From the IMG/VR virus record IMGVR_UViG_3300033571_007537, positions 1 through 64,000 of that record: a stretch of 64,000 nt of DNA; one strand, written 5' to 3'. A program made the position numbers and the translations under genes. The notes under the pieces were generated by a model that did not search any database, was not told where the DNA came from, and was given only the letters and a program-made list of their open reading frames with translations. Below are positions 48,032-64,000 of this stretch, one piece after another. Source of the stretch: a virus. Position 1 is the stretch's first letter, and each line of letters opens with the position of its first letter.

Positions 48032-48046
48032 GGGCTTCTCCTAAAT

Positions 48047-48346: not shown

Positions 48347-48347
48347 C

Positions 48348-49230: not shown

Positions 49231-49404
49231 GTATTTATTGTATCATGTCTGCGGCTAAGTTTATGTACTTTAATTAAAAATGATACCTTAACGTATTTTG
49301 CTTTTGGGGTGCGAGATGGCTGCGTATGTTTTCGCGACACGCCCGAATTGTTTCCTGTCCCGTTCAGGTTCTATCATAGATTCGCTTTTGCCAGAGCCTC
49401 AATT

Positions 49405-49920
49405 CCAGACAAAACAAACAACATCAAGCACATAAGCACACATCAAACAAGACAAACAAACAACAAACATCAAGAGTCAATCAACTCAATCAAACACACA
49501 CACACAAACAAGCACATAGACACATCAAACACACATCAACAACACATCAAGCACATCAAACACACATCAAGCAGACTTTTACTCAATCAAGCACATCAAA
49601 CACACACTAAGCACGCCCAGACACCCGTCTAGACCCACTTAGCACCCAGACCCACTTAGACACACCCAGACCCCCTTGAAGTCAATCCCAGACCCTCCCA
49701 GAGCAACTAAGCACACATCTAGGCACACAAACAAACACCCACTAGCCCAGACCCGCCCAGAGCAACCTAAATACCCAGCACAGCGACCAAACACCCGCCT
49801 CGATACGCCCCCAGCGACCAGACCCTCGCTCAAACACCCACCGCAACCCAGTAATCGCCCCATAGAGCCGTGTAGCCCTCAAAGAGCCGTGTAGCCCCCC
49901 AGACCCAGACACGCCCCCCA
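49405..49920. repeat. Strand-skewed low-complexity tract: A/C-rich repeats then C-rich repeats
   Basis: Imperfect AAGCACATCAAAC / ACACATCAA units up to about 49620, then CCCAGAC-like units; direct repeat AGAGCCGTGTAGCCC at 49864 and 49883. Confidence 0.85.
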
Positions 49921-49933
49921 GAGGCGACCCGCA

Positions 49934-49985
49934 ACACGCCGAACATCAAACTCAATTTGACAAACTATAAACAAAACCTCATACT
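49934..49985 (+). promoter_or_regulatory. Early-type sigma70 promoter with upstream ACACGCCG box
   Basis: TTGACA (49957) -N17- CATACT (49980). Confidence 0.8.
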
Positions 49986-50016
49986 TGATACATAGCCACT
50001 AGAAAGGAAATCACAA

Positions 50017-50277
50017 ATGGCAACTCGCAACTCAATCACCGCAATCGAAACCTATGATGTTCTAGGTGAAACAAAGTCAATCGCACCTACCACTCACGCA
50101 CTAGTAGAGGCGGTAACTTGGACTGAGGCAGGAGCAATCGCTACCGCACTAGACCACATGGCAAGCGACATGTCCGACAGTCCAGCAAGTCAGGCATACG
50201 CCACTTACCTCAGAGGCATTGCCCAGAAGTTCGAGGGCGTTCTAAACGCAATCGCAATCGCTAAGGGCATGGACTAG
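50017..50277 (+). CDS. Hypothetical early protein (86 aa)
   Basis: Own promoter, GAAAGGA RBS and downstream terminator. Confidence 0.8.
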   Translation: MATRNSITAIETYDVLGETKSIAPTTHALVEAVTWTEAGAIATALDHMASDMSDSPASQAYATYLRGIAQKFEGVLNAIAIAKGMD

Positions 50278-50287
50278 CCCCCAGCAA

Positions 50288-50325
50288 CAATAAACCCCTC
50301 TAGCAGGTTGCTAGGGGGGTTATTT
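50288..50325. terminator. Intrinsic terminator between convergent genes
   Basis: AACCCCTCTAGCA-GGT-TGCTAGGGGGGTT stem. Confidence 0.75.
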
Positions 50326-50352
50326 GCTACTGAGGCGACTTACGGCAAGCCT

Positions 50353-51756
50353 CTACCTAATCTTGAACCCTCCACCATTGCCACCTCTAAACGGACTAAT
50401 CTTGCGAGCACCCATAGAGCGGGCAGTAATCTTGCCACCACTAAACCCAGCAGGAGGCTTGATTAGAAGAGCCGTGAGGGCGTGAACCAACGCGTCCACG
50501 CGGTCAGGCGACTTGCCCTCTCCGGGAATCCAAGAATACATTTGCGATTCTAAGTCCGTGAGGTACCCGACATGATGGACGCGACCTTGCTCATAGGCAA
50601 GCGTGATAGGTTCTGCCCGCAACGCTTTTCCGTATTTGGAGTGAACCTCTAACACCGTGACGCTAGGGTCTATTGTGTGTATCGCGTTCTTCACTAATGC
50701 TCCACCTTGATTCACCTCCGCAACCACAGGGCAACCCCACTTGCGAGCCATCTCGACCACCCGCATTGCCCAAACATTAGGCGACCCCAAGACTGAGGCG
50801 TCCTCGACCACCCACGCTTGACGCTTATACAAATCTCTATCTGCCGTGCTTGAAACCACTACGATACCGCACTCATCTCGAGGGTTCTCCGCGACTGAGG
50901 GGTCTACCCCAATTACGCGAAGAGGCGTGCTTGAGGGGTAATTGCCGTGTCTATGCTTTTCAATCATTTCCTCAGTCCAGAGAGCACCCTCAACATTGTC
51001 CAACATCTCGCCATAAAGTTCTTGCTTAGCAAGTGAAGTTCCCGCGTATACGCCCAGCATTGTATCCAGATACGCACCAGAGAGGTTACCCGCATTGTCC
51101 AGCGTCGAGCCACGAGTTACGACCACATTGCGACCCTTATCCGCCTCCTCGAGCAACTTGTAGAGCAACGGCACACGCTTAGGAGTTGTAGTTACGACCA
51201 TTTTCGGATACGCACCCAAACGAGTTCCAACACGCAAGTTATCAAACGCAGTCATACCAGCCGCGTCGGGAGTCTGCCTCCAAGCCGCAATCTCATCTCC
51301 CCAAGCGTGAGTGAACTGAGGTCCACGCAGAGAGTCAGGCTCATCAGCAGTAAACAGAGTTGCCGTGTTGCCATTAGGCCAGGTCAGGCGACGCTTAGAC
51401 GGCTCATACAGAGGCTTTTCAGATGGAGGCGAAACATTCATAATCCCAGACTCACCCTCAACGATTACATCTCGCACATCAGCCGCAGTTCGGGCTACGA
51501 GGGCAAAACGGCGTTGCCCAGTTGTAGTGTATTTCGCTTGCTCCCGCACCCACTCAGAGGCGAGGCGAGTCTTCCCAAAACCACGACCCGCAAGCACTAA
51601 CCAGATGTTCCAGTCTTCACCCTCAGGGCAGAATTGCTCAGGGCGACCCCAGACAGACCAGTCCCAGAGCAGAGAGTCCGCGTCCATACCAGCCAGCACC
51701 ATCGCCCGTTCAGCCTCAGGGAGGTCAGCGATTTGTTCCATTATAGATTTACCCAT
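50353..51756 (-). CDS. terL: Terminase large subunit
   Basis: AGRGFGKT Walker A, LRGPQF..AWGDE, TTTP, GVDP, E.NQGG, SPDRVDA. Confidence 0.95.
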   Translation of the reverse strand: MGKSIMEQIADLPEAERAMVLAGMDADSLLWDWSVWGRPEQFCPEGEDWNIWLVLAGRGFGKTRLASEWVREQAKYTTTGQRRFALVARTAADVRDVIVEGESGIMNVSPPSEKPLYEPSKRRLTWPNGNTATLFTADEPDSLRGPQFTHAWGDEIAAWRQTPDAAGMTAFDNLRVGTRLGAYPKMVVTTTPKRVPLLYKLLEEADKGRNVVVTRGSTLDNAGNLSGAYLDTMLGVYAGTSLAKQELYGEMLDNVEGALWTEEMIEKHRHGNYPSSTPLRVIGVDPSVAENPRDECGIVVVSSTADRDLYKRQAWVVEDASVLGSPNVWAMRVVEMARKWGCPVVAEVNQGGALVKNAIHTIDPSVTVLEVHSKYGKALRAEPITLAYEQGRVHHVGYLTDLESQMYSWIPGEGKSPDRVDALVHALTALLIKPPAGFSGGKITARSMGARKISPFRGGNGGGFKIR

Positions 51757-51845
51757 CTTCCCAGTCTACCGCATCTTTTCCCGGTCTTCCGTGTGTTCCC
51801 TCCTCCGGGCCGGGCCGCCTTCATCAACTTTTCACGGAGCAACCA

Positions 51846-51897
51846 GACACGCCGAAGAACCTTCCAATTTGACAAACCAAACTTCATAGCCCATAAT
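51846..51897 (+). promoter_or_regulatory. Early promoter with GACACGCC box
   Basis: GACACGCCG (51846), TTGACA (51869) -N17- CATAAT (51892). Confidence 0.8.
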
Positions 51898-51939
51898 TAC
51901 TACATAAGCAAAAATGCTTATCCAACCAAAGGAGATTCA

Positions 51940-52299
51940 ATGACCACCACACTAAACACAATAACCGCAACTGCTACTGAATTTGGTTTTGACGCAGGTA
52001 TTACTTTCAGCACTCAAGAGCAACTTGATACTTTTATTGCTCTATTCCCAAAATCAACTAAAGTAGTTGCCACTCGCCTCACCACCCTTGACGGAGCAAC
52101 ATCTCCGCACGCTACTTTTGGTATTCGCCTAGTCGCAGATAATGTCAATGGCGGAACTAACGAAACAGGTCTCAAAAGACTTCACAAGTTCGTCGCGGTA
52201 GCAACTTCAAACGGATACGAAATCCACAACAACCCTTGCTACGGAAACTCACTAACCCAAGAAGCGTTCGACAAACTAATCGGGAGGGTGATTGCCTAA
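51940..52299 (+). CDS. Hypothetical early protein (119 aa; start reassigned to MTTTLN)
   Basis: AAGGAGATTCAATG leader; terminator at about 52320-52352. Confidence 0.8.
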   Translation: MTTTLNTITATATEFGFDAGITFSTQEQLDTFIALFPKSTKVVATRLTTLDGATSPHATFGIRLVADNVNGGTNETGLKRLHKFVAVATSNGYEIHNNPCYGNSLTQEAFDKLIGRVIA

Positions 52300-52506
52300 C
52301 GGCAACCCCGCCTCAACAAAGAAGCCCCCGCCCAGAAGCGGGGGTTTTCTTTTACCCGAAGCGAAGCGAAGCACTTGACTTTTTATAGAAAGCGTGATGA
52401 CCGACTTTTTTCGCCAACTTCCGGGTTTTCCGTGTGGTCCAGGTTTCCAGGCCCCTTCGCGATTTCCTCATCAAAACTTTTCATCAAAAGTTAGCCGTAT
52501 CCCGAT

Positions 52507-52536
52507 TTGACAAAACAATACCGCGTCCCTCATAAT
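52507..52536 (+). promoter_or_regulatory. Early promoter
   Basis: TTGACA -N18- CATAAT. Confidence 0.75.
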
Positions 52537-52579
52537 TGCTACATAAACAGAAATGTTTATCTGACCCCAAGGAGATTCA

Positions 52580-52906
52580 ATGACCAATTCAAACACCGCG
52601 ACTCAAACTGAACTACTAGACGCTTACATGATTGGCAACGGCGACTTCACTGATGTTGCTTGCCTAGACTGTGCCCGCGAGTTCGCAAGAACAAACAAAC
52701 TCAAGTGGGACTCTCCGTCCGAGGACACCTTCACGATTGAGAAGGGGACGGGTGCTTACGCCTCCTACATACACTCCTCCGAGGGTGAGGCGGACTCTCC
52801 GTATTCTTGTTGCGGACTTTACCTCCACACAAACTTCACCACTGAGGGCGAGGTTTACCTAATGGACGAGTTCCCGAGTTGGGTTGCGGAACTCTACGGG
52901 TTCTAA
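52580..52906 (+). CDS. Acidic Cys-containing early protein
   Basis: Same leader; CxxC and CC; terminator at about 52916-52950. Confidence 0.8.
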   Translation: MTNSNTATQTELLDAYMIGNGDFTDVACLDCAREFARTNKLKWDSPSEDTFTIEKGTGAYASYIHSSEGEADSPYSCCGLYLHTNFTTEGEVYLMDEFPSWVAELYGF

Positions 52907-53050
52907 CCCGAACACAAACTAGCCCCCTCCAAGTGAGGGGGTTTAGTTTTATCCGCCCGTAAATGCCCCGCTACGCCCCTCAGCGGGTGAGGGCGACTAA
53001 CTTTACCTACTACATCACTTCAACCCCTCAGCGGGCGTCCTAGACCCGAT

Positions 53051-53080
53051 TTGACAGATTGACCCCCTAACCCTCATACT
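53051..53080 (+). promoter_or_regulatory. Early promoter
   Basis: TTGACA -N18- CATACT. Confidence 0.75.
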
Positions 53081-53122
53081 TGATACATAGAGCAGAGATG
53101 CTCCCCGACTAAAGGAGATTCA

Positions 53123-53329
53123 ATGAGCAGTTATTACGATTACCAAGATGACGCGGATTACGCGAAGGAGATTTATTGGGAGGCGAAGGGACTTGGAAAC
53201 GCTAATCCTTCAACCGCAACTCCTAACCGCACTCCAGCACCTCAGATTGAATGCGAGAGATGCCACCGCAGAGGTTCAGCAGAACAAGTTGCTAGCCACA
53301 ACATCAAATACCCGAACTGTGCTGACTAA
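53123..53329 (+). CDS. Small Zn-finger-like early protein
   Basis: CERC...H...C; AAGGAGATTCAATG leader; terminator at about 53343-53380. Confidence 0.75.
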   Translation: MSSYYDYQDDADYAKEIYWEAKGLGNANPSTATPNRTPAPQIECERCHRRGSAEQVASHNIKYPNCAD

Positions 53330-53522
53330 CCCTCAGCACTCAAAGATTTCCCCTCGTAGAGATACGGGGGTTTTCTTTTATCCAAACTGAAGCAGAAGCA
53401 GAACACCAGCACTTGACTTTTCACGAAATTCGCGTAGCCCCGGCTATTCCGGGTTTTCCGTGTAGCTTCCCCGCAGCGAGCAACTTTTTACGAACTCCTC
53501 TTCAAAACTTTTTTTATTAGTC

Positions 53523-53563
53523 CGCGTGTCGATTTGACAAAATGTATGCCTATACCCCATACT
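53523..53563 (+). promoter_or_regulatory. Early promoter with adjacent GCGTGTC box
   Basis: GTGTC-N3-TTGACA (53534) -N18- CATACT (53558). Confidence 0.75.
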
Positions 53564-53606
53564 TGATACATAAGCAGAAATGCTTACCAACCTAAAGGAG
53601 ATTCAA

Positions 53607-53846
53607 ATGAAGAAAGTTGTTCTAGTTAGCAAGTCAGAAGGTCAGCGTGGACAGAACGGTAAGAAGAAGGTTTACGAGATTATCGTTGAAGGAAACAAAG
53701 TAGTTCTGTCTTGGGGTATGGCAGAGAAGTCAGTCCGTCAAACCAAGACCGAGTGGTTCAATAACCCTTACTCCGCAGAGAACTTTGTGTTCGAAAAGCA
53801 ATGGGAAAAGATTGCTAAGGGCTACGAAGTGGCATACACCGCGTAG
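53607..53846 (+). CDS. Stand-alone WGR-domain protein (start reassigned to MKKVVL)
   Basis: K.YEI.V.G..V..SWG....Q.....F.....A......EKIAKGY pattern, with WGM in place of WGR. Confidence 0.75.
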   Translation: MKKVVLVSKSEGQRGQNGKKKVYEIIVEGNKVVLSWGMAEKSVRQTKTEWFNNPYSAENFVFEKQWEKIAKGYEVAYTA

Positions 53847-53851
53847 CACTT

Positions 53852-53895
53852 ACGAAAAGACCCCCTAGTCGAAATGACTGGGGGGTTCTTTCGTA
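53852..53895. terminator. Bidirectional terminator at the +/- convergence point
   Basis: ACGAAAAGACCCCCTAGTC-GAAAT-GACTGGGGGTTCTTTCGT. Confidence 0.75.
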
Positions 53896-53901
53896 TCTGG
53901 A

Positions 53902-54486
53902 TTACCGCACTCGGTTCTTCTCCAAAATAGGGTGATAGACCTTGCTAGTTCCATTACTAGGTTTTAGGTAGCCGTATCTGGCAAGTCTAAATCTAATCGC
54001 ACCGTGAGTAGTTCCTAACCGCTTACCTAATCTGTAAAGCGTTACGCCCTCTGTTGTGTGTGAGTAATTTAGTAGCCTCGTGTATTCTTCTGCCTCTGCC
54101 CTAAACTTTGGTGAATTAGACCGCACCTTGCGTGCTAGAGGTTGAAGTTCTAGCAGTCGTGCCAAAGTTTCTGGCGAAGGTTCAATGTAAACTGGTGAAG
54201 GTTTTACGGGCTTCAATGGAAGTTCTGGAATAGTTAGTCCATAAGATTTCGTAAGTTCTTCAGCAGTCGAAGCGTCAGTAATTTTTGCCACTTGGCGAAC
54301 TCTCTCCCTTGACCAATGGAATAGTTCAGCGACACTTTGTAATGTCCACCCGTGATTTCTCAATGTGGTTGCGTAAGCGTTTCGTATTTCTTTCCACTCC
54401 GCAGTCGGAAGTGTTGCGTGAAGTTTCGCAACATCAGTCGCAACCTCAGTTGGAAGTTGGTGATTATTTTTCTTGAATTGAGTCAT
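53902..54486 (-). CDS. Tandem HTH DNA-binding protein (start reassigned to MTQFKK; paralog of 48721-49230)
   Basis: GWTLQSVAELFHWSRERVRQ (sigma region 4-like HTH) and GVTLYRLGKRLGTTHGAIRFRL. Confidence 0.8.
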   Translation of the reverse strand: MTQFKKNNHQLPTEVATDVAKLHATLPTAEWKEIRNAYATTLRNHGWTLQSVAELFHWSRERVRQVAKITDASTAEELTKSYGLTIPELPLKPVKPSPVYIEPSPETLARLLELQPLARKVRSNSPKFRAEAEEYTRLLNYSHTTEGVTLYRLGKRLGTTHGAIRFRLARYGYLKPSNGTSKVYHPILEKNRVR

Positions 54487-54591
54487 TTTGTTTTTCTTTC
54501 TCCGAGTTTTGTCCCGGTTTTCCGTGTTGAACTTTTGACGAAGAAGAAGCGGGACGCTGAGGTCCCGCACCTTCTTCAGTTTGGTTTGATT

Positions 54592-54978
54592 TTAGAAGCG
54601 ACGATTGTGATAAAAGTCTGAGTCCGAGATTGATTTTCCCGTTTCTTCTTCGAGTTCTATCTTCTCCGCACCGAGCATAATGCCCCATACATCGGATAGA
54701 AGATGAGCAAAGTTCTTACCGCGAGTTTGATAAACGCGGTTCTTGAAGTTTGGATAGTCAATCTTCAACGCTTGTTCCGCAACCCACGCTGACCACTCTG
54801 AGTCCTCGATGATTACTCTATACGGGTAGTCCGTATTAGTCTTCTTGATAATCTTCGCACCCGTAAAGTCCACGATGCTTCTGAGGGATTTCTTGTCCCT
54901 CGCACGAACTGTGATTTCGTCTTTGTCATTTTTGTATCGAATCGCCGAAACGAATCCATTTTCAGTAAATAGCCACAT
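54592..54978 (-). CDS. Conserved phage hypothetical protein
   Basis: MW.F...GF.S, VRAR, DYPYR, IDYPNFK pattern; GAGAGGA RBS. Confidence 0.75.
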   Translation of the reverse strand: MWLFTENGFVSAIRYKNDKDEITVRARDKKSLRSIVDFTGAKIIKKTNTDYPYRVIIEDSEWSAWVAEQALKIDYPNFKNRVYQTRGKNFAHLLSDVWGIMLGAEKIELEEETGKSISDSDFYHNRRF

Positions 54979-55097
54979 AAGTATTTGTCCTCTCGTCTTT
55001 GTGTCTTACCGCAAGGAGAAATCTACTCCTTGCTAATCAAGTCTTGAGTTATGCCCTTACGGCGTTATCACAATGTTATCATTTACACTTGTGCTTG

Positions 55098-55265
55098 TCA
55101 AGCCCGGAGATTTAGGACGGCAAGAGCAAGCGCAGAAGCACCCAGTCCCACTACCGCAGACAGTTCTCCTCCGACTAACACCAGCACAATAGTCCCAGCA
55201 ACAAGAAGCAAAGACCCAACAGCAGTCCAAGCAACCTCCCGCAGTAAAGCGAATAATCTATTCAT
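55098..55265 (-). CDS. Small membrane protein (55 aa, about 2 TM), missing from the ORF track
   Basis: MNRLFALLREVAWTAVGSLLLVAGTIVLVLVGGELSAVVGLGASALALAVLNLRA; GAGGAG RBS; ATGA coupling. Confidence 0.7.
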   Translation of the reverse strand: MNRLFALLREVAWTAVGSLLLVAGTIVLVLVGGELSAVVGLGASALALAVLNLRA

Positions 55266-55420
55266 TTCTTTTTCTCCTCAGTTTGTTTTGGAAGCACAAC
55301 TCCCAGAAGGGGTTGAACCTTTCTTGATTTTCTCTCCACCCAGATAACAATCCCAGTAGTGAGCAACGCTGAGGCGACCAGCACCGCAACGAGAAGTTGA
55401 GTAGCGTCGAAGTTAGTCAT
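55262..55420 (-). CDS. Small membrane protein (52 aa, 1 TM), missing from the ORF track
   Basis: MTNFDATQLLVAVLVASALLTTGIVIWVERKSRK...; overlaps its neighbours by 4-8 nt. Confidence 0.6.
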   Translation of the reverse strand: MTNFDATQLLVAVLVASALLTTGIVIWVERKSRKVQPLLGVVLPKQTEEKKK

Positions 55421-55529
55421 CGTCTAGCCCACTCTCCGTGCCCTCAACGAACACCGCAGTAATCATCGCCAGCACAAATACCCCAGCAAGAATTCCAAAT
55501 CCGCCCAGTATCCATAAAAAGATTTCCAT
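55413..55529 (-). CDS. Small membrane protein (38 aa)
   Basis: MEIFLWILGGFGILAGVFVLAMITAVFVEG...; AGGAGA RBS. Confidence 0.65.
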   Translation of the reverse strand: MEIFLWILGGFGILAGVFVLAMITAVFVEGTESGLDDD

Positions 55530-55670
55530 TGTTTCTCCTAAATCATTTGACACATCACACTCTAACATAAAAATCTTCTGAGGCACCATCTTTTCCGGGT
55601 AGTCCGTGTAGCTTCCGCCATCGCACAAAAAACTCCCTCACCCTGAGGCGAGAGAGTTCTTCGATTTTGT

Positions 55671-55835
55671 TTACGCTAGTTCAGGTTTCTTTATTCTGAC
55701 CATACGCCTAACTCGAAAGTTGGCGTCAATTGGAATTATTCCCGCACGCATAGCCCAGTAAAACAGTTCATACTCCTTGCGAACCGCAAACTTATCCAGT
55801 TCAGCAATTCTTTCTTGCGTTAGTTTCTTTCTCAT
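55671..55835 (-). CDS. Small basic protein (54 aa), missing from the ORF track
   Basis: MRKKLTQERIAELDKFAVRKEYELFYWAMRAG...; GAAAGGA RBS; hairpin downstream. Confidence 0.65.
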   Translation of the reverse strand: MRKKLTQERIAELDKFAVRKEYELFYWAMRAGIIPIDANFRVRRMVRIKKPELA

Positions 55836-55859
55836 TTGATTTCCTTTCACTTGTTATAA

Positions 55860-56018
55860 CTACTTATCTTTGAGATTTATTCCCGCCCTAGAACGACGCT
55901 TACGCTTAGGCGGAACATAGAAGTAATTCACCCACAAAGACCGCGACACGACCGCGAGGAGGGCGAACCCAGTAGCAACCGCGACCATTGACAGAACCAG
56001 CACAGTTGATTTGTCCAT
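55860..56018 (-). CDS. Small membrane protein (52 aa) with basic tail, missing from the ORF track
   Basis: MDKSTVLVLSMVAVATGFALLAVVSRSLWVNYFYVPPKRKRR... Confidence 0.6.
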   Translation of the reverse strand: MDKSTVLVLSMVAVATGFALLAVVSRSLWVNYFYVPPKRKRRSRAGINLKDK

Positions 56019-56021
56019 TGA

Positions 56022-56186
56022 CTATTTCCCCGCTTTCTTTCTGAGGTCAAAGTAATAAAGAACTAGCGACTGAGCAATCAAAATAGTTCCGAGTCCCGCA
56101 CCAATTACAAACGAGTTCACGCCCTCTGAGGTTGCCCCAACAAAGTAAGCGAACGCCCCAAGTAGGAATACTAAATACTTCAACAT
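56022..56186 (-). CDS. Small membrane protein (54 aa, 2 TM; start reassigned to MLKYLV)
   Basis: Two hydrophobic segments; AAGGTGG RBS. Confidence 0.65.
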   Translation of the reverse strand: MLKYLVFLLGAFAYFVGATSEGVNSFVIGAGLGTILIAQSLVLYYFDLRKKAGK

Positions 56187-56188
56187 AA

Positions 56189-56407
56189 CTAGCCCACCTT
56201 TCTTGCCAAGTTCAAAACTTGTGGAGCAAAGGTTAGGAACACCGCACCTAGTCCACCAATCCAAAGTCCAGTTGCCCAAACTTCACTAGCACTTGAACTA
56301 GCACCCGCACCCGCACCTACCATCAACGCGTAAGCAAACAAGTAAGCACCCGCAACGAACGGAACTGCTATTAGTCCTACTACTGCTCTACGAAAATAAA
56401 ACTTCAT
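56189..56407 (-). CDS. Small membrane protein (72 aa, 2 TM)
   Basis: AAGGAGA RBS; two hydrophobic helices. Confidence 0.75.
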   Translation of the reverse strand: MKFYFRRAVVGLIAVPFVAGAYLFAYALMVGAGAGASSSASEVWATGLWIGGLGAVFLTFAPQVLNLARKVG

Positions 56408-56648
56408 TTATTTCTCCTTTTGTCTTTTAGTCTTTCGACTTACTACAAAGGTAGCACATAACCCAATTGAACGCAAGTCCATTTCACCTCAGCGTGTCGC
56501 ACTTGACAAAAGTCTTCCTTCGTGAAAAGTCTTCCTCCGTAAAAAGTTGAACGAGTTAGGCAACCCTAACTTTTCCGGGTGCTCCGTGTGAAGTCCCCGC
56601 GTCAAAAAAAAAATCCCCGCCATTTCTGACGGGGAAACTTTTTACTGA

Positions 56649-56837
56649 CTAACCCAAGTCTGGGTAGTAAGGTGTTGGGTCGCAACAACCGATACAAGAA
56701 CCGAACGCTGTGCTGTATCTGGTTTCATCTACCAAAGGGTTATCTGCTGTGATTAGTTCTTCGCAGTCTGGGCAGGTTTCAGGTGCTAGTCCTACTAGGT
56801 TTGCTACGAAGTTGATGTTTGTGAAGTTGGTAATCAT
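56649..56837 (-). CDS. Small Cys-rich protein
   Basis: CPDC...CIGCC; own promoter, RBS and terminator. Confidence 0.7.
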   Translation of the reverse strand: MITNFTNINFVANLVGLAPETCPDCEELITADNPLVDETRYSTAFGSCIGCCDPTPYYPDLG

Positions 56838-56987
56838 TTGAGTTCCTTTCTTGAACTACTACAATGGTAATGCTTTTGTTTAGGTTTGTCAAGTTCATTT
56901 GACGGCGTGTCGTGAATAACAAAATCCCCCCTGCTGTGTGCTGACAAGGGGGATTTTTTGAGTGTGTCCGACACTCGGCGGGTTCTT

Positions 56988-57176
56988 TTACTTTTCCAAG
57001 TCTTCCAAGTTTTCCATCTCTTCAACAATCTTCATAATTCTTGCTTGCTGAGTTCCATCTAGACTTGCCCAAGCCAATCCAAAAGCGTATGAGTAAGGGT
57101 GTGTGCTTGCCATACCTGCTTTTAGTTCTAGTGCTTCGATTAGGTCGCTTGAGTTGATGTAAGTGTTAGTTGTCAT
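56988..57176 (-). CDS. Small hypothetical protein
   Basis: Own promoter, GAAAGGA RBS and terminator. Confidence 0.75.
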   Translation of the reverse strand: MTTNTYINSSDLIEALELKAGMASTHPYSYAFGLAWASLDGTQQARIMKIVEEMENLEDLEK

Positions 57177-57242
57177 TTGAGTTCCTTTCTCGAACTACTA
57201 CAATTGTATTGCTTTTGGTGTTGCTTGTCAAATCCAAAACAT

Positions 57243-57389
57243 TTACGGCGTGTTGTGAACTTCGTGAACACTAACCCGCACTCGTGATAATCCCTCTGAG
57301 ATTGCCCACTCGTGAACTCGTGCTTCGGCTTCGCGTTCTGTATCTGCTTTTACTAAGAAGATGTTTCCGTATCCATTTACCTCGAACAC
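57243..57389 (-). CDS. Possible small protein (48 aa, GTG start)
   Basis: MFEVNGYGNIFLVKADTEREAEARVHEWAISEG...; start overlaps the upstream stop. Confidence 0.45.
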   Translation of the reverse strand: MFEVNGYGNIFLVKADTEREAEARVHEWAISEGLSRVRVSVHEVHNTP

Positions 57390-57577
57390 TATGACCCCTG
57401 TCCGTAAAGTGAAAACCTAATTGTGTTTTCTGGATTAGCACTCTCGGCAATAAGTTTGCGAGTGTTGCTGATAATTCTTTCGGCGTCTTCCCAAGTGTGA
57501 ACTTCGTAAAGAGGAGAAAGAACTTCTTCTCCATTGCTGTTGATGATGTTGATTACTAGTGTGTCTATTCTTGCCAT
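57389..57577 (-). CDS. Small hypothetical protein
   Basis: GAAAGGA RBS and promoter at 57630. Confidence 0.75.
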   Translation of the reverse strand: MARIDTLVINIINSNGEEVLSPLYEVHTWEDAERIISNTRKLIAESANPENTIRFSLYGQGS

Positions 57578-57965
57578 TTTATTTTTCCTTTCTCTGGCGT
57601 GTTTCTATTGTAAGACTTTGAGGTCATCTTGTCAAATTGTATGTTGAGTCAGTTTAGCCACCCCTCGCGGGATTTATAACTCAGGTGGTCGCCTGTTGCT
57701 GTAAGTCGCATCTTCTACAACTCTGGCTCATACCAACTCCATCTCGGCTGGCTGAGGCTAGGACACTATGCGAGTTCCTAACTCGTAGAACTACTATACC
57801 CAACTTCTTCCTTTGGATTAGCAACTCCTCCCCAACTTCACACGAGTCTTCGTCAAAAGTTTCCGCCCGCGGTCGAGGCTTCCATCTATTCCCAGTATTC
57901 CGTGTAGCTTCGAGGTAAAAAGAAACCCCCGCAAGTTTCCTCACGGGGGATTTCTTTTTGAGCGA

Positions 57966-58643
57966 TTACCTACTCGAAGCGAACAATAGAGATTTCTGCT
58001 GTTCTCTTTCCCTCTGTGCTTTTTGTTCTTTGAAGGATTTATTTTCTAGAACCCGCACATAAGTAATCGTTGAGTAAGTCCCGCCCCAATTCTTTATTGA
58101 AGCGACACTCGTAACTTGTCCGCGATTTCCGCCAGCGTGAATCATTTTATCTTTTCCAAGATAAATCGCGACGTGGTAGATGTTCTTGCTTCTCGTGTAT
58201 GAAAAGATAACAAGGTCGCCTACCTTTGGCTTCTTAGTTACTTTACCCGCGTGGCGTTGTTTGGAAGCAGAGTGTTCAAGTTCAACACCTATCTTGCCAT
58301 AAGCCCAGCGTGTCATACCTGAGCAGTCCCACCCTCGCGGGGTAGACCCTGAGAATACATACCAAGTTTTACCAACTTGATTTCTCAAAGTCTTCACCAT
58401 CTTTTTTATTTTGACGGCGTTGCTATTTAGTTTTTTGTTTTTAGCAATCTCTTTTACCATAAGAGTTTGTCTTGCTTCTTGACTTTCCAGCGACTCAAAG
58501 AAGTTTGCTGATGAAGTTGTTGAAACATTTGTTGCTTTTATGTTTATTGACTCGGCGGTCATCTTAGGCTCTTCTGCGTTTGACGGCGTAGAACCAGATA
58601 ACACGAGTAGCGTTGCTAATCCGATTGTCAGTAACCTTTTCAT
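57966..58643 (-). CDS. Secreted NlpC/P60 peptidoglycan endopeptidase
   Basis: Signal peptide (MKRLLTIGLATLLVLSG...SNA), YVFSG....WDCSG, GDLV.F, HVAIYLG...MIHA. Confidence 0.9.
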   Translation of the reverse strand: MKRLLTIGLATLLVLSGSTPSNAEEPKMTAESINIKATNVSTTSSANFFESLESQEARQTLMVKEIAKNKKLNSNAVKIKKMVKTLRNQVGKTWYVFSGSTPRGWDCSGMTRWAYGKIGVELEHSASKQRHAGKVTKKPKVGDLVIFSYTRSKNIYHVAIYLGKDKMIHAGGNRGQVTSVASIKNWGGTYSTITYVRVLENKSFKEQKAQREREQQKSLLFASSR

Positions 58644-58752
58644 TTAGCGACCTACCTTTCCTGGTTTTACGAGTTAGCACTCGGTCGTTTATTGTTGGGG
58701 TTCTCCCTGATGTTTCGCTATTCAGTTATCACTCGTCCAAAGGACAAGTTCC
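58644..58752 (-). ncRNA. Structured 5' leader resembling a reduced c-di-AMP (ydaO/yuaA) riboswitch
   Basis: CTGAAT ... CAGGGAGAACCCC ... CCGAGTGCTAACTCGT in the ydaO order, upstream of an NlpC/P60 gene; TATACT -10 at 58756-58761. Confidence 0.45.
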
Positions 58753-58898
58753 TCCAGTATACCCAAAAAGAGTGGAAAAAACCTAATCCTCCAAGTTTTC
58801 CGGGTAGTCCGTGTCAGGCGTCCCTCCCGAAATCCGCGTCAAACCAACGAAGAATCCCCCCACCTTTCGGCAGGGGGTTCTTCCAAAGTGTGTCGGAA

Positions 58899-59231
58899 TT
58901 AGGCGAACCAAGTCTTCCTGAGTCCCTCAATCTGTGAATCTGAGAGTCCAATCGTATCTCCCTCGTCATCTGTTCCACCTGTGAATACGGCAGTTCCAAC
59001 GATGACATCGGTAGCACCAAAGAACTCGTTCCACATCACAGTTCCAAAGGCGTTGAATGGTAGACCTACCATCTTGCCCTCTTCGTTCACCCAAAGGGTC
59101 AGAGTCGGGGTCAGGTCTATTGCTTGAATCCAACCATCAACTAATCCTTGAAGAGTTTTCAATTCGTTTCCTGCGATGTCCACAACTGAGAAAATCCCAT
59201 CTGGAGTTATTGCTACGGCGTTCTTAGTCAT
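58899..59231 (-). CDS. DUF3846-like protein
   Basis: LQ.LV.GWI.AI, VNEEGK..GLP.N, DVIVG.AVFTG. Confidence 0.8.
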   Translation of the reverse strand: MTKNAVAITPDGIFSVVDIAGNELKTLQGLVDGWIQAIDLTPTLTLWVNEEGKMVGLPFNAFGTVMWNEFFGATDVIVGTAVFTGGTDDEGDTIGLSDSQIEGLRKTWFA

Positions 59232-59394
59232 TTTGTTTTCCTTTCTATTGACTACAATTACTATCTTACGCGTTCAATCGGCGTTTGTCAAATTAGACAC
59301 GCCAAAGGTAAAACCCCCCTACCTAAAGGAAATCTAAAAGGTAGAGGGGTTTTGAAGGAGGGGCTGGTTAGGAGCAACCCCCTCCTCCAACTTC

Positions 59395-59721
59395 TTACAG
59401 GTTTTGTAAGAAAGTGTATTCAGTTTGGGTCAGCGTTTCGGCATACGCTTCTGGAAACATCTCGGCAAGTTTCTTGCCATCTGTTCCCTTGCGAGTTCTT
59501 GAAGCAACCTTGACGACAACCATGCCCTCAACTAATCCTGCTTCGGCGTTGCCTAGTGCTTCGCGAAGAATTGCTTCGGCGTTAGCCTTCTGCTCTTCAA
59601 GAGCCTTGATGGCTTCCTTAGCGTTAGCAAAGTCGGCAAGTGCCTTCTGTGCTTCGGCGTTCAGTTCTACTGCTGTGGTGCTGGTGGTGATTACCTGAGT
59701 GTTCTTTACAATGCTGTTCAT
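59395..59721 (-). CDS. Coiled-coil early protein (paralog of 63481-63795)
   Basis: ALG.AE, D.KKLAEMFPEAYAETL. Confidence 0.8.
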   Translation of the reverse strand: MNSIVKNTQVITTSTTAVELNAEAQKALADFANAKEAIKALEEQKANAEAILREALGNAEAGLVEGMVVVKVASRTRKGTDGKKLAEMFPEAYAETLTQTEYTFLQNL

Positions 59722-60056
59722 TGGTTATCTCTTTCTGTTAGGTAAGCATTTCTGCTTATGTATCTAAGGTAGCCTATTTGATTTGATTTGTCAAATCCAT
59801 TTGGTTCTCGGCGTGTCGTTTGTTGTTGCCTCCCCCTCAGCCCGACCTAAGGAATAAATCTGAGGGGGAGGTTTACCAATCAACCAACCAAGGGAATCAA
59901 CCTTGATAACTAAAAGATACCATCTCAGGTTTCGTTTGTCAAATCGAGATGGGACGGCGTTCTTCGTAAAAAGTTGAAGGGAAGCACCAGCCCACACGGA
60001 ACTCCGGGAAGAGGATAAAAAGAAACCCGACGAGATTTCTCCCATCGGGTTTTCTT

Positions 60057-60350
60057 CTACCTAAGTTCTGACAACACTTCTTTCGAGAACCCCTCTGGGA
60101 CTTCATCTGGGATTCTCCAAGAGGCGAGTCTTAGCCCTGCGTCAATCACAATGGACGGAACATCTGTGCGTAGACTCTTTGCCCAAGTTTCCAAGAACGC
60201 TGAGGATACTTCTTTATGCCCGCGTTCAACCTCGCTGAGGTATCCAAGTGCGATGGTCGCCTCAGTAGAAACTCTCCTGAGTGTGTAGCCCAACTTGTGT
60301 CGGCGTTCACGGAGGATTTCTCCTAGTGCGTCTTTATACATTAGCGTCAT
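60057..60350 (-). CDS. XRE-family HTH regulator, ClgR-like
   Basis: LGEILRERR...G.TLR.VS..A.IALGYLSEVERG.KE.SS matches the actinobacterial ClgR signature as I recall it. Confidence 0.8.
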   Translation of the reverse strand: MTLMYKDALGEILRERRHKLGYTLRRVSTEATIALGYLSEVERGHKEVSSAFLETWAKSLRTDVPSIVIDAGLRLASWRIPDEVPEGFSKEVLSELR

Positions 60351-60636
60351 CTGAACCTGCTTTCTTTTCTTCTCGCAACCTCTTTTGACGGAGGCGTTCT
60401 TTTTCGATTAGTTCCGCATACTTTTCCGGGAAGTTTTCACGGAGGTTGTTCAAATACTTCTGACGCTTGACTCTGTTGTATTCACGGTAAGCGTCTGGGT
60501 CTGTTTCTTTCAAACGCTTTATCCAATCATTACTGCGTCCCGCGTATTTTTCTTTGTTCTTCTGGTAATACAATTTAGCGTATTCCCGCTGTGCTTGCCT
60601 CAGTTCTTCGAGGGTCGTGTATTTCTGTTTCGGCAT
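60334..60636 (-). CDS. Basic helical protein (start reassigned to MPKQKY)
   Basis: K/R/Y-rich repeats; TAATG coupling with the upstream gene. Confidence 0.65.
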   Translation of the reverse strand: MPKQKYTTLEELRQAQREYAKLYYQKNKEKYAGRSNDWIKRLKETDPDAYREYNRVKRQKYLNNLRENFPEKYAELIEKERLRQKRLREEKKAGSDDANV

Positions 60637-61106
60637 TATTTCTTTTCCTCTCCTGCTTCGGCGTGTAGAACTTGTGCTTGACCAATTGCGTCTTCTAGCG
60701 AGTGGTATGGCTCTGAGAAAAACTCTGGGTCTTTCTCTGTGTAAACTTCGAACCACGAGTTGTTCTGCCAAGAGAAAACTTCTTCTCCCTTGTTTGACCA
60801 CTCTTCGAGTTGCTGGTCATTAGTTATACCAAACTCTTCGAGTTTGTCTGTGTAGCGAATAACCTCAATGTGTCCGTCGTCTGTTGTTGCGTGGATACGC
60901 ATTTCTCCATTACGAACCACATAGTAGTCGCAACTCTCGTGTTCCCATACAACTTCTACTCCGGGTTCATTTGTGAAAAACGCTGAGTCATTTCTTGTTT
61001 CCATTTTGTATGTTCCTTTCTCTGAACAATTGTGGGTGTTTGGTGCTTCTGGCGTTTGCGAGTATCCGCAATCGAAACACACATACAAAGTATTACTCTG
61101 TGTCAT
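60636..61106 (-). CDS. Acidic hypothetical protein (start MTQSN at 61106; alternative METRN at 61004)
   Basis: Both starts have an RBS; promoter at 61158. Confidence 0.7.
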   Translation of the reverse strand: MTQSNTLYVCFDCGYSQTPEAPNTHNCSEKGTYKMETRNDSAFFTNEPGVEVVWEHESCDYYVVRNGEMRIHATTDDGHIEVIRYTDKLEEFGITNDQQLEEWSNKGEEVFSWQNNSWFEVYTEKDPEFFSEPYHSLEDAIGQAQVLHAEAGEEKK

Positions 61107-61269
61107 TATTGCTTCTCCTCTTTCTGTTATTACTAAGGTATCAAGTAAAAAGATGTTTGTCAAATCCTGAGTCTGACGGCGGGTCGTCAAAAGTTTTCCG
61201 GGGGTTCCGTGTGCGTCTTCAAACAAAAAAGAAACACCCGCGTTCCCGCGAGTGCTTCCCTCGAAACTT

Positions 61270-61494
61270 TTACTGCTTGAGATGACCCTTGAGGAAATTA
61301 CTCGGGTGTCGAGCAATACTTGCTTCAAGCCCCTTTGGGTCTGGGTTCGGCACACCTGCTTCGCTTGAAACAACTATAATTCGATACTTTGTTCCTGACC
61401 AACTCAGGAACGCCATCGCATAATCTTTCGCTTCTTGCTGAGTTGCGAACTCGTAAGGGAGAACTCCCTGCTTAGTTTCTACTTTGAAAATCAT
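61270..61494 (-). CDS. Small hypothetical protein (start MIFKVE)
   Basis: GAGAGGA RBS; promoter at 61541. Confidence 0.65.
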   Translation of the reverse strand: MIFKVETKQGVLPYEFATQQEAKDYAMAFLSWSGTKYRIIVVSSEAGVPNPDPKGLEASIARHPSNFLKGHLKQ

Positions 61495-61598
61495 TTGTTT
61501 CCTCTCTTTCTGTATCAAGTATTACAAATACTTTTAGTTTTGTCAAGCCCGACACGCGGTAAAACCCTCACCTTTTGATGAGGGTTTCCGCGTAGCCC

Positions 61599-61871
61599 CT
61601 AGACTTCCCAGGGTTCATCGAACTCGGCACTAGCAAGGTGGTCTTCCCTAATCTCTTGTAGGTGCTGTTCAACGAACTGCTTGAACGCATCTAGGTTCTT
61701 TTCAATGCGAGGTTCGCCCTTTGCGTAATCCCAAACGTTGATGATGTCAAACGCTGACTTTGGAAATAAATCTGTGTCTAAATCTCTAAAGAAGATTTCA
61801 ATGTATTCGCCACCGCTCCAAACGAAACGCATGTCTTCTGTGCTGTCGTAAACCATCTTTGCTTTTGCCAT
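61599..61871 (-). CDS. Hypothetical early protein
   Basis: GAAAGGA RBS, promoter and terminator. Confidence 0.75.
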   Translation of the reverse strand: MAKAKMVYDSTEDMRFVWSGGEYIEIFFRDLDTDLFPKSAFDIINVWDYAKGEPRIEKNLDAFKQFVEQHLQEIREDHLASAEFDEPWEV

Positions 61872-62095
61872 TTTTATTTTCCTTTCGTTGGCTATGTATC
61901 AAGTATAGGGTTTATGCCCGCATCTGTCAAATCCAAACTTTGAACGGCGTGTCCCATAAAAAGTTGCGAAGGGAGGGCCGAGATGCTGAACTTATCCGGG
62001 GCTTCCGTGTGGAGGGACGCGGCGGAAAAACTTTTCACGAAGAAAAAAAAACACCCCCTCCCAAATCGGGAGGAGGCATTTTTATTTAGCAGAAC

Positions 62096-62347
62096 TTATC
62101 TGTCGTTATACTCGTCGTAGCGGTCTGCCTCGTAGTCATCTCTGTCATCAGAGATAGAACTCTCTAAATAGGTTGAACCGCAGAACTCGCACTCAATCGC
62201 GTAGTTGCCGTAGTCATCAGTTGTGGTTTCACCCGCACCATTTTCTTTTAGGCACTCGTCGTTCTCACACTCGAACTCGTCGTATGAAACTTCTTTGGCA
62301 TAAATGCCTGAACCCATCATTGAACCATCTGGATAGTTGTCGCTCAT
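62096..62347 (-). CDS. Very acidic Zn-ribbon-like protein (start MSDNYP)
   Basis: About 25 D/E versus 5 K/R in 83 aa; C....C and CEFC. Confidence 0.75.
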   Translation of the reverse strand: MSDNYPDGSMMGSGIYAKEVSYDEFECENDECLKENGAGETTTDDYGNYAIECEFCGSTYLESSISDDRDDYEADRYDEYNDR

Positions 62348-62457
62348 TTTGTTCCTTTCTCGAACAATTACTACATTACAGGAAACGGCACAGCAAGTCA
62401 AATCGCCACGCCGAAGAAGAACCCCCCGCACTCGGCGGGAGGTCTTCTAGCGAACGC

Positions 62458-62889
62458 CTAGACGTTCTTGGCACAGACCGGGCCGATACCAACCGCAACC
62501 GACTTAGGGTCAGTTAGGAACTTGGCACAGACACAGCAGAAACCAGTTTCTACTCCGAACGCTTTTGCCTCGTCAAGACTCATCTTGTCCGAAGACTTTA
62601 GTGTGCGAATAGCACCAGAGGCGAAGATGAACTTCATCTCGATAATGTCCAACTTCTTTGCGTAGAGGTTGCCAGACTCCAGCGAACGCTGAACGCGGAA
62701 GATTTCGTCGCCCTTGCGATACATACCCTCTTCTTCAACGCCACCCGCAGTTGGCATTGCTAGCAGTTGTGCGATTAGGTTTGACGCGTCTTTCGAGGTC
62801 ATTGTTGAGAAATCAACCGCGTCGCTGACGCCACGCTCTACGCGTAGGTTGTTGATGAAACTTACTTGCTTGATGGTGATTGGGTTCAT
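62458..62889 (-). CDS. DUF6011-like Zn-finger protein
   Basis: CCVCAKFLTDPKSVAVGIGPVCA; N-terminal T.KQ..FI..L. Confidence 0.8.
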   Translation of the reverse strand: MNPITIKQVSFINNLRVERGVSDAVDFSTMTSKDASNLIAQLLAMPTAGGVEEEGMYRKGDEIFRVQRSLESGNLYAKKLDIIEMKFIFASGAIRTLKSSDKMSLDEAKAFGVETGFCCVCAKFLTDPKSVAVGIGPVCAKNV

Positions 62890-63139
62890 AATTTGTTCCT
62901 TTCTCGAACAATTACTACATTAGCCTAAATCGGCGTTGATGTCAAATTAGAAAGATTACGGCGTGTCGTCTTTTTCTTCTCCTTCCTCTTTTTCTTTTTA
63001 CGAGTTCCATCAAAAGTTGCGAAGGGACGCAAGGCGTCTTGCGAGTTTTCACCAACCGCGACTTTTCCCGGTGTTTCGTGTTGCCCGCACACATAAAAGA
63101 AAGCCCCCGCATTTCTGCGGGGACTTCCTCAACCAACCC

Positions 63140-63355
63140 TCACCACGAGGTTTTTTCGGCGAACTCCTTTTGATGTTCTACCGAGAACTTGATGTTCGGG
63201 ATTGTTTCCGCGAACTTCGGCATTTCATTTTTCAAAATGCCCTCCACGATTGCGAACTCTTTTGCTGGAAGTTTCTTGTAAAGCGTTTCCAACATTGAAC
63301 GCATACCCGCGTTAGCACCGAACTCGTAAATCTCTATCTTTTCATTTTTACCCAT
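63140..63355 (-). CDS. Small hypothetical protein (start MGKNEK)
   Basis: GAGAGGA RBS; promoter at 63410. Confidence 0.65.
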   Translation of the reverse strand: MGKNEKIEIYEFGANAGMRSMLETLYKKLPAKEFAIVEGILKNEMPKFAETIPNIKFSVEHQKEFAEKTSW

Positions 63356-63480
63356 TTTTATCTTCCTCTCTCTGGGTGATGTATCTATTGAACCATACTT
63401 ACCGCAATAAGTCAAATCTCGTGCCTCCCCGCGTGTCGCGAGGTTGAGGGCGGGTTTCCCCGCCCCCTCGCTCACCGCCC

Positions 63481-63795
63481 TTAGAGGGTGATGATTTTTA
63501 CTACTGGTGTTTCGCGGAGGGTTTCCGCGTAAGCCTCTGGGAACTTTTCCGCAAGGGCTTTGAGGTCATTGCTACGACGAGTTGAAGTTTGTGTCTTGTA
63601 GACCACAACGCCTCCAAAAGTCGCCTCCTCTGCCTCGCCAAGAGCATTTAGCAAATGCTCTTTGAGCATTGCCTCTTTCTTGGCAAGTTCACGCTGAGTT
63701 TCTCGCAACTGGGCGAGTTCCAAAGCGTTCTGGACTAGAACTGCTGATACCTCAACTGAGGTTGAGATAGTGGTGCTGGTAGTGATTTTAGCCAT
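63481..63795 (-). CDS. Coiled-coil early protein (paralog of 59395-59721)
   Basis: ALGEAE, DLKALAEKFPEAYAETL. Confidence 0.8.
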   Translation of the reverse strand: MAKITTSTTISTSVEVSAVLVQNALELAQLRETQRELAKKEAMLKEHLLNALGEAEEATFGGVVVYKTQTSTRRSNDLKALAEKFPEAYAETLRETPVVKIITL

Positions 63796-64000
63796 TTGTG
63801 ATTTCCTTTCTAGTGGCTGATGTATCTATTGAACCACAACTGATTACATTTGTCAAATCGAACTTGCCTCTGGCGTGTCGCGTGTTTGTTCAGTTGTGTA
63901 GTTCTTTGGTGCTAAGTCAATTATGAGGGACTACATACCTTTTTGTCAAATCGAGATTTGATGAGAGATGACGCAACTTTTCACGAAGCGAAGCGAGGCA

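Follow-up and report, generated by a model that had tools for sequence, protein, structure and literature searches.

A sharply bounded 25-kb block purged of four-base palindromes in the genome of an uncultured lake phage, with counterparts in relatives

A stretch of 64,000 nucleotides from the viral record IMGVR_UViG_3300033571_007537 (IMG/VR), hereafter called the window, was analyzed for the distribution of palindromic tetranucleotides. The window comprises bases 1-64,000 of this source record (G000), a linear viral contig of 90,990 bp. From position 49,292 to approximately position 74,447 of the record most palindromic tetranucleotides are missing, and this purged zone forms an internal block of 25.2 kb with two sharp edges. 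The loss depends on the position of the DNA, recurs at corresponding places in related genomes and coincides with a class of promoters that is confined to the zone. The literature searched contains no description of a phage in which most tetranucleotide palindromes are erased from one block only.

49292..64000, no strand assigned: part of the purged zone inside the window, its first 14.7 kb; the zone continues to approximately 74,447 of the record

Palindromic tetranucleotides are lost from one block of the record

Right of position 49,300 of the window, TGCA, TTAA and ATAT do not occur at all, compared with 189, 187 and 106 copies in the 49.3 kb on the left. GTAC and GCGC are found once each (129 and 66 copies on the left), AGCT and ACGT three times each (286 and 205 copies; the ACGT sites are located at 58,171, 61,735 and 62,462), GGCC six times (44 copies) and CATG seven times (94 copies). 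For the DNA right of 49.3 kb in the window a second-order Markov model predicts 28-68 copies per word, and under this model the ten tetranucleotides with the lowest ratio of observed to expected copies (O/E) are all palindromes. GATC is absent from the entire record of 90,990 bp, although approximately 188 copies would be expected in the genes outside the zone alone. The avoidance thus has two tiers, with GATC being avoided genome-wide and nine words being avoided in the zone only. Altogether, ten of the 16 four-base palindromes are reduced 4- to more than 50-fold inside the zone; AATT, CTAG, TCGA and TATA show no strong loss there, and an enrichment is seen for CCGG and CGCG. Low values are also found for some interrupted palindromes (GCNGC, GGNCC, GTNAC).

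The depletion had originally been predicted by eye, as a sharp step near 49.3 kb to the right of which TGCA, TTAA and ATAT are missing and GTAC occurs once. The counts agree with this, and the positions given for the last copies before the step are exact (TGCA 48,922, AGCT 49,130, GTAC 49,265, TTAA 49,288 and ACGT 49,291). Two ACGT sites had been overlooked, as only the one at 58,171 was listed, and the list of depleted words was incomplete, since GCGC, CATG and GGCC are depleted as well and GATC is absent on both sides of the step. The predicted zone (49,300-64,000) was placed correctly at its start but not at its end, as the purge runs on to approximately 74,447 of the record.

A fit of two change points to the full record places the edges at 49,300, where the step had been predicted, and at 74,440 (log-likelihood gain 404), with 1.7 sites per kb in the zone versus 25.9 per kb outside. 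The codon-preserving shuffle that had been proposed as a check was performed by exchanging synonymous codons among the zone genes, with proteins and codon usage being kept. It gives an expectation of 34-74 copies per word in the zone, where 0-13 are observed; the O/E of the ten words is 0.00-0.20 in the zone and 0.5-0.95 outside, except for GATC (0). For non-palindromic tetranucleotides the ratio between the densities in the zone and outside has a median of 0.99 and a minimum of 0.37. The purge is equally strong in genes and in intergenic gaps, in G000 as well as in six relatives. Protection of single genes in place of the DNA molecule is thus not seen here, and it is only in the related genome G005 that sites pile up in the gaps. 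A loss that is restricted to palindromes and affects genes and gaps alike points to enzymes reading double-stranded DNA, and it suggests that the DNA duplex is under selection, as opposed to the proteins or messages.

Inside the zone, ACGT reappears 7-8 times at record positions 68,121-68,948 (approximately 68.1-69.0 kb), without any return of the remaining purged words. This ACGT-rich 0.9 kb has the look of a cassette that was taken over from another zone in which ACGT is not purged.

The large terminase gene is purged only where it lies inside a zone

The positional nature of the loss can be followed on the conserved gene terL, with the portal gene as a control. A third gene, p225pept, accompanies terL in one of the lineages described here.

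50353..51756, minus strand: terL, encoding the large terminase; purged by synonymous changes
46247..48031, minus strand: portal gene; control gene, 1.3 kb outside the purged zone
57966..58643, minus strand: p225pept, encoding a 225-aa secreted protein with a tail-lysin/peptidase-like domain; purged in G000

The gene terL is located inside the zone in G000 and in the related genome G006, and outside in G001, G002, G003 and G005; the TerL proteins of these five relatives are 81-85% identical to that of G000. While terL contains three sites of the purged word set in G000 and few in G006, the G005 ortholog contains 54. Thirty-four of these lie on codons for residues that are identical in G000, which indicates that the corresponding sites were removed synonymously in the terL gene of G000. 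The portal gene has a normal palindrome density in every genome examined. Since terL is purged inside the zone and normal outside, the effect is positional, as had been proposed from the purged terL of the window.

In lineage ii (G004, G007 and kin) the main zone is followed by an unpurged island of 3.7 kb, a purged mini-zone of 2.5 kb and the promoter of p169, the first gene outside the zone (G004 46,250-52,850, L094; G007 61,300-67,000). The island consists of the peptidase-like gene p225pept and terL and has a background density of 28 sites per kb. The mini-zone harbors small genes reading back towards terL and 13-15 copies of CAGGCTCA-type repeats. Promoter-like sites in G004 number 13 in the main zone, zero in the unpurged island and three in the mini-zone. 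G004 and G007 differ by 11-15% of their nucleotides throughout, with TerL proteins being 97% identical, and the same arrangement at this divergence shows that the pattern of lineage ii is old and maintained. A recent import of the island was considered and rejected, as the island is common to G004 and G007, with a nucleotide identity of 85%, and their TerL forms a clade of its own. A zone edge within the terL gene of lineage ii was also considered, but the signal is too weak, with the density merely thinning in the last third of the gene.

Purged zones in related genomes and the distribution of DNA methylases

One scan of one viral contig collection yielded 441 terL relatives, of which the best 80 (79-92% identical) were listed; complete ones have a size of 136-154 kb. 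Eight large relatives were compared with G000. In seven of them there is exactly one place at which long palindrome gaps coincide, with a length of 12-27 kb, and the eighth (G009) has no zone. In these seven genomes the homolog of a 75-aa gene, 1-3 kb past the endolysin gene, marks the start of the zone exactly or closely; the zone and ends before the p169 homolog or near the peptidase-like gene. The same pattern is found at most of the 80 listed terL loci with enough upstream DNA. Among the more distant relatives, DSL-LC01, G009, A3Wally and many contigs found with an AAA ATPase probe have no zone.

The sets of purged words are lineage-specific and differ between genomes. TTAA, ATAT, TGCA, GTAC and ACGT are purged in nearly all zones, and AGCT, GATC, CATG, CGCG, GGCC, AATT, TCGA and CCGG in some. 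Genome-wide loss affects GATC and CCGG in G001 and AGCT, CGCG and GATC in G006. In G001, AGCT is purged across only half of the zone.

The record of DSL-LC01 (L100, OQ999401, 1-50,000) has a G+C content of 55% and no zone, and ATAT and TTAA are absent throughout the 50 kb analyzed. This represents genome-wide avoidance of two words that every zone of the relatives has lost.

Among the genomes, a C5 DNA methylase is encoded by G005 alone (match at 24,395-24,952, with one in-frame TGA). Its zone (46.1-63.9 kb) is the only one that keeps AGCT, GATC, GGCC, GCGC and CGCG, and G005 alone piles AGCT, GATC and TGCA into the intergenic gaps of its zone. Searches for C5, N4/N6 and D12 methylases (PF00145, PF01555 and PF02086) gave no match in G000-G004, and PF00145 was not found in G006, G007 and G009 either, so that the bulk of these genomes would not be self-methylated. 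The methylase of G005 together with its kept cytosine words, and the lack of a methylase in the other genomes, make restriction by the host the most likely selective force.

Edges of the zone

The left edge of the zone is sharp to a few bases, with 18 sites in the 400 bp before position 49,292 and then none for 860 bp. The following features adjoin it:

49231..49291, minus strand: start of the unpurged DNA; AT-rich region with promoter (TTAAGGTATCATTTTTAA ... TGATACAAT) directly upstream of the p169 ATG
48721..49230, minus strand: p169, encoding a 169-aa protein with two helical HTH-like domains; first gene outside the zone
49400..49950, no strand assigned: non-coding, repeat-rich A/C tract of approximately 550 bp at the inner zone edge

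The last 30 bp of the promoter region contain five sites of the purged set, and its TTAAGGTATCATTTTTAA motif is kept at the equivalent position in G004, G007 and G006. The protein p169 is possibly a small terminase or a regulator, the former label being based only on weak Pfam matches below the cut-off (HTH_23 and Terminase_5). Many p169 homologs carry PF06056. The predicted structure model of p169 has a pLDDT of 85; a profile search of solved structures and a fold search with it gave no clear match.

The A/C tract consists almost entirely of A and C and is built from the units ACATCAA(A/G)CACA, CCCAGACCC and two copies of AGAGCCGTGTAGCC, and it is the sole strong repeat array in the 91-kb record. 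A boxed promoter of the class described below, at 49,336, is directed into it, and the tract may be transcribed as an unstructured A/C-rich RNA. At the same threshold no A/C-skewed tract was found at the zone edge of the relatives; repeat arrays of different sequence are located upstream of p169 in G004, G007 and G003.

The right edge coincides with the start codon of a 75-aa acidic gene, 39 nt after a secreted transglycosylase-like gene, and both zone edges are located in short spacers. A divergent promoter at the 74.45-kb edge was considered and rejected, as the plus-strand open reading frames (ORFs) there are spurious and minus-strand lysis-type genes adjoin the zone.

Early promoters and proteins of the zone

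The boxed promoters of the zone share the form CGACACGCC, 11-13 nt, TTGACA, 17 nt, TAnnnT, and each has GAAAGGA and a start codon behind it. The stretch from 49.3 to 74.2 kb contains 14 leftward and four rightward boxed promoters, and none was found elsewhere in the 91 kb. Five of the leftward ones lie in the window and nine further ones at 65.0-74.2 kb of the record. The box contains GACAC, which we take to be the binding core of WhiA. In each of the eight genomes with a zone (G000 and seven relatives), the density of consensus promoter-like sites is 3-7 times higher inside it. The in-window promoters and the genes and elements near them are as follows:

56845..56911, minus strand: first of the five leftward early promoters in the window
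59,810; 61,946; 62,960; 63,872, minus strand: further leftward promoter boxes in the window
49908..49985, plus strand: early-type promoter with a GACACGCC box, TTGACA, 17 nt and CATACT, reading into an 86-aa ORF
50017..50277, plus strand: 86-aa acidic ORF (pI 4.7), convergent with terL; no family match
50293..50321, no strand assigned: G+C-rich hairpin between terL and the convergent 86-aa ORF, as read from the sequence
51846..53887, plus strand: block of small ORFs with TTGACA promoters at 51,869, 52,507, 53,051 and 53,534 and a terminator at its end
53902..54570, minus strand: basic protein of 222 aa, containing a sigma-70 region 4 domain (PF04545, 31.9 bits, above cut-off)
53,444-53,469; 55,590-55,615; 57,886-57,911, plus strand: Box A copies (TTCCGGGT..TCCGTGTAGCTTC), approximately 2.2 kb apart

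The promoter class with the GACACGCC box is confined to the zone. The hairpin at 50293..50321 probably serves as a two-way terminator. The 222-aa protein is 46% identical to the product of A3Wally gene 41, the last gene of the terminal repeat of that phage, and is a candidate for the switch to later promoters. The Box A copies contain the only three AGCT sites of the zone, all within CCGTGTAGCTTC boxes as had been seen in the original prediction, and half-copies are located at 49,864 and 49,883. As Box A holds the only AGCT sites, it seems to be kept against the purge.

Small size and a strongly acidic pI (4.1-4.6) characterize many of the zone proteins, among them the four encoded next to the 74.4-kb edge. 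Scans of the zone for Rfam families and tRNAs gave no match.

Layout of the record and named relatives

CheckV estimates the completeness of the source contig at 53%. Nearly all genes of the record are encoded on the minus strand. Left of 49.3 kb the portal gene and a head/tail module are located, and right of terL approximately 60 small ORFs, an ATPase of the MoxR-type AAA family and a von Willebrand factor type A (VWA) protein are found; lysis-type genes, accompanied by a dNMP kinase gene, lie beyond the zone.

41,323-45,681: 1,452-aa head-module protein, MuF-like and with several ADP-ribosyltransferase matches
31,371-41,006: 3,211-aa giant head-module protein, almost without family match
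25,971-30,698: 1,575-aa giant head-module protein
71,083-72,174 of the record (beyond the window): MoxR-type AAA ATPase, inside the purged zone
69,103-70,965 of the record (beyond the window): VWA protein, inside the purged zone
75,356-76,117 of the record: endolysin, among the lysis-type genes past the zone

The three giant head-module proteins are probably injected cargo. The pair of MoxR-type AAA ATPase and VWA protein lies inside the zone in all relatives and is also kept in DSL-LC01.

A megablast search of both window halves against phage records gave no match. By TerL, the closest named records are Actinomycetia phage DSL-LC01 (74%), Microbacterium phages of the A3Wally type (63%) and Gordonia phage GodonK (47%). 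The presence of a WhiB gene in DSL-LC01 points to freshwater actinobacterial hosts.

Long terminal repeats and known systems with first-exposed DNA

A3Wally (MZ150783) has an exact direct terminal repeat of 15,503 bp, which was read from its sequence, and GodonK (NC_048176) a repeat of approximately 7.6 kb, as derived from duplicated genes in the annotation coordinates. Phages with related terminases thus package genomes with long repeats. Both belong to the same TerL clade as G000 and have the gene order in common with it, namely the gene for a 310-aa protein, endolysin, small genes, the sigma-region-4 gene, terL, p169 and portal. The repeat of A3Wally begins with the homolog of the 310-aa protein, which precedes the endolysin in G000; its gene 4 is the endolysin homolog and its last gene the sigma-region-4 homolog, followed at the inner end by a non-coding, repeat-rich tract of approximately 600 bp. 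It overlaps most of the stretch that is purged in G000. The 74.4-kb edge is located within the 39 nt ahead of the first gene, a position resembling that of the left terminus in A3Wally (62 nt ahead of gene 1) and in GodonK (37 nt). In contrast to G000, A3Wally and GodonK are high-GC soil phages with repeats that are not palindrome-poor, and the endolysin gene is inside the A3Wally repeat but outside the zone in G000.

In T5 and BF23 (Tequintavirus) the first-step-transfer (pre-early) DNA is located in the terminal repeat of 10.2 kb; in T5 it is the left repeat, with a non-coding, repeat-rich stop region of 1 kb at its inner edge. Restriction acts only on sites in the first-step-transfer DNA of T5, and CRISPR likewise acts only on targets inside it (PMC10644984; bioRxiv 10.1101/866236). 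The G000 zone resembles this system in being a discrete block with small early genes, strong promoters for the host polymerase and an inner repeat-rich non-coding tract. However, the A/C tract shows no sequence likeness to the T5 stop region, the TerL of G000 is not T5-like and there is no T5 homology. The block is 12-27 kb in this family versus approximately 10 kb in T5, it contains terL in G000, and up to ten words are erased from it, whereas the T5 block is not poor in 4-bp palindromes; in addition, two-step transfer and the repeat are presumed features of the G000 phage. As T5 lacks the palindrome loss and the TerL proteins are not of one type, the resemblance is one of design and not of descent.

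T7-like phages (T7 with Ocr; Murciavirus) would be comparable in that leading DNA is exposed first, promoters point inward and the earliest proteins are acidic. The sensitivity of murciaviruses to restriction is decided by motifs of the early-injected region alone, and earlier surveys of site avoidance ignored the location of sites (PMC12455610). T7-like phages differ by their 40-kb genomes, short repeats and own RNA polymerase; a wholesale purge of tetranucleotides is not reported for them, and the gene orientation in G000 is mixed. Genome-wide avoidance of palindromes, with under-represented Type II targets, is described for phages (Rusinov et al. 2018, PMC6286503). The avoidance of GATC across the genome of G000 is of this kind, but nine of its ten words are avoided in one base-sharp block only. 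Finally, in plasmids that are conjugative the leading region enters first and carries anti-defence genes (Shaw et al., bioRxiv 10.1101/2025.04.03.647016; Samuel et al. 2024), and certain groups of plasmids show a depletion of short palindromes in it (Shaw et al., bioRxiv 10.1101/2025.04.03.647016). It differs in belonging to another kind of element, in its single-stranded entry and in its modest, group-dependent depletion.

Interpretation of the purged zone

We consider the chances to be somewhat better than even that the zone represents an early block that is exposed first, as in T5, and that is probably a terminal repeat. It would be the part of the phage DNA lying unprotected in the cell until the phage has built up its protection, being delivered first in a staged, T5-like genome transfer, and it would be identical with or lie within a long direct terminal repeat, the copies of which short-read assembly collapsed to one. 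Host Type II enzymes cutting 4-bp palindromes would select against each such word in the block, and the host RNA polymerase would read it from approximately 18 strong promoters, giving rise to small acidic proteins and the sigma-region-4 protein. Afterwards the rest of the genome, with its sites retained, would become safe. The thousands of sites outside the zone imply that the bulk of the DNA is not freely accessible while the host enzymes are active and that it enters later or is shielded. The 74.4-kb edge is favoured as the leading end, and the repeat tract at 49.4-49.95 kb would act as a stop region of the T5 type, because the A3Wally repeat genes read inward from the left end, the majority of the promoters in the zone are directed from 74.4 to 49.3 kb and the repeat tract is located at the far edge, like the T5 stop region. 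The purge, its edges, its dependence on position, its spread in the family and its promoter class are observed, and restriction as the selective force, staged entry, the terminal repeat and the leading edge are inferred.

Several observations weigh against this reading. The zone is an internal block of 25 kb and not the end of a sequence, which speaks against its simple form, and the G000 assembly contains one copy of the block, with no terminus, repeat or coverage step visible in it. Complete relatives assemble as circles with end overlaps of 103-124 bp, and among the 33 loci found with the AAA ATPase probe no contig carries the zone twice. By synteny, the A3Wally repeat would start approximately 3 kb outside the zone and end approximately 4.6 kb inside it, which makes the match an approximate one. 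Tests for the loss of 4- and 6-bp palindromes were negative for the repeats of A3Wally and GodonK as well as for the first-step DNA of T5. The lineage ii island is not explained by one contiguous first-entering stretch, and terL, a late function, is located inside the zone. Approximately 30 of the larger zone proteins were compared with PHROGs and Pfam; most gave no family match, and neither a known anti-restriction protein nor homologs of T5 A1, A2 and dmp were found among them. The original prediction of a first-injected region is thus sustained in so far as the zone is an early-gene block with host-type promoters, but not as an end of the sequence. Its alternative of a long terminal repeat gains from the repeats of A3Wally and GodonK, the former overlapping the syntenic stretch, and loses from these repeats not being palindrome-poor.

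The purge could also reflect accessibility and not the order of entry, if the whole genome entered shielded, for instance condensed or coated by co-injected giant head proteins such as those of 3,211, 1,575 and 1,452 aa, and only the units with host-type promoters were open to RNA polymerase and hence to restriction enzymes as well. The purge does track such units, as seen in the main zone, island and mini-zone of G004; the lineage ii island, which linear entry does not account for, would be explained, and the giant MuF/ADP-ribosyltransferase head-module proteins are encoded beside the zone. However, we know of no such coat for a siphophage that is read by the host polymerase. In G000 and six relatives the purge affects untranscribed gaps no less than genes, the terL genes of G000 and G006 are purged despite their late function and the edges are sharp within tens of bases, so that this explanation appears rather unlikely. 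As accessibility of promoter units alone fits poorly with the purged gaps and the purged terL of G000, staged entry is kept at slightly above an even chance. Another course would be a transcription-coupled entry like that of T7, in which the host RNA polymerase pulls in the block from the end at approximately 74.4 kb and the acidic first proteins are Ocr-like. The orientation of 14 of the 18 boxed promoters from 74.4 to 49.3 kb, the pI of 4.1-4.6 of the first four proteins from the 74.4-kb edge and the restriction of effective motifs to the early-injected region in murciaviruses (PMC12455610) are in line with it. Yet the rightward 2-kb block at 51.9-53.9 kb and the leftward terminators upstream of terL would halt the polymerase, while the purge reaches 49,292, and gradual entry predicts a fading edge, while the observed one is sharp. 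A single-subunit RNA polymerase (PF00940) was not found in G000-G004, in a search without positive control. Entry of this kind is regarded as distinctly unlikely.

The zone might instead evade early nucleases of the phage itself, which would degrade host DNA at short palindromes at a time when the zone is the only phage DNA present. Such self-avoidance was proposed by Davison for T5 A1 (bioRxiv 10.1101/866236), and word sets that vary among close relatives are what fast-changing accessory nucleases would give. As 8-10 specificities per phage would be needed, with no nuclease family found among the approximately 30 zone proteins, as staged entry would still be required, and as the kept cytosine words of the methylase-bearing G005 fit host restriction better, this is very improbable. 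A mosaic history, with the zone being imported from a phage purged genome-wide, or else an assembly chimera or an effect of composition, is hardly credible. Cassettes do move between zones, as the return of ACGT at 68.1-69.0 kb in G000 and the half-zone loss of AGCT in G001 suggest, but no relative is purged genome-wide for the zone words, the zone has the same syntenic place in independent assemblies and GATC is absent on both sides of the edge. Furthermore, it depends on the location of a conserved gene whether it is purged, and non-palindromic words are unaffected.

Meaning for the phage family

For T5 and, in 2025, for T7-like phages it was established that only sites in the DNA exposed first count, and the same rule would be legible in the sequence here. 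The family is abundant and uncultured, with its 441 terL relatives in one collection, and its signal can be read by eye. If the preferred reading of a first-exposed block is true, the purge is a marker, obtained from sequence only, by which this block can be recognized in phages not amenable to culture, and the terminal repeat probably as well. The word sets would then list the 4-bp specificities of the hosts, including words without a known enzyme, such as ATAT, for which no restriction enzyme is known to us. The reading would also define the small early proteins in which broad anti-restriction factors should be looked for.

The methylase-bearing G005, which keeps cytosine words, represents a natural control, and the unpurged island of lineage ii could separate models based on entry order from those based on accessibility. 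If accessibility should prove to be the cause, the purge would be a base-resolution map of the DNA that is accessible in the first minutes of infection, and the word sets would represent the restriction repertoire of uncultured lake Actinobacteria, ATAT included.

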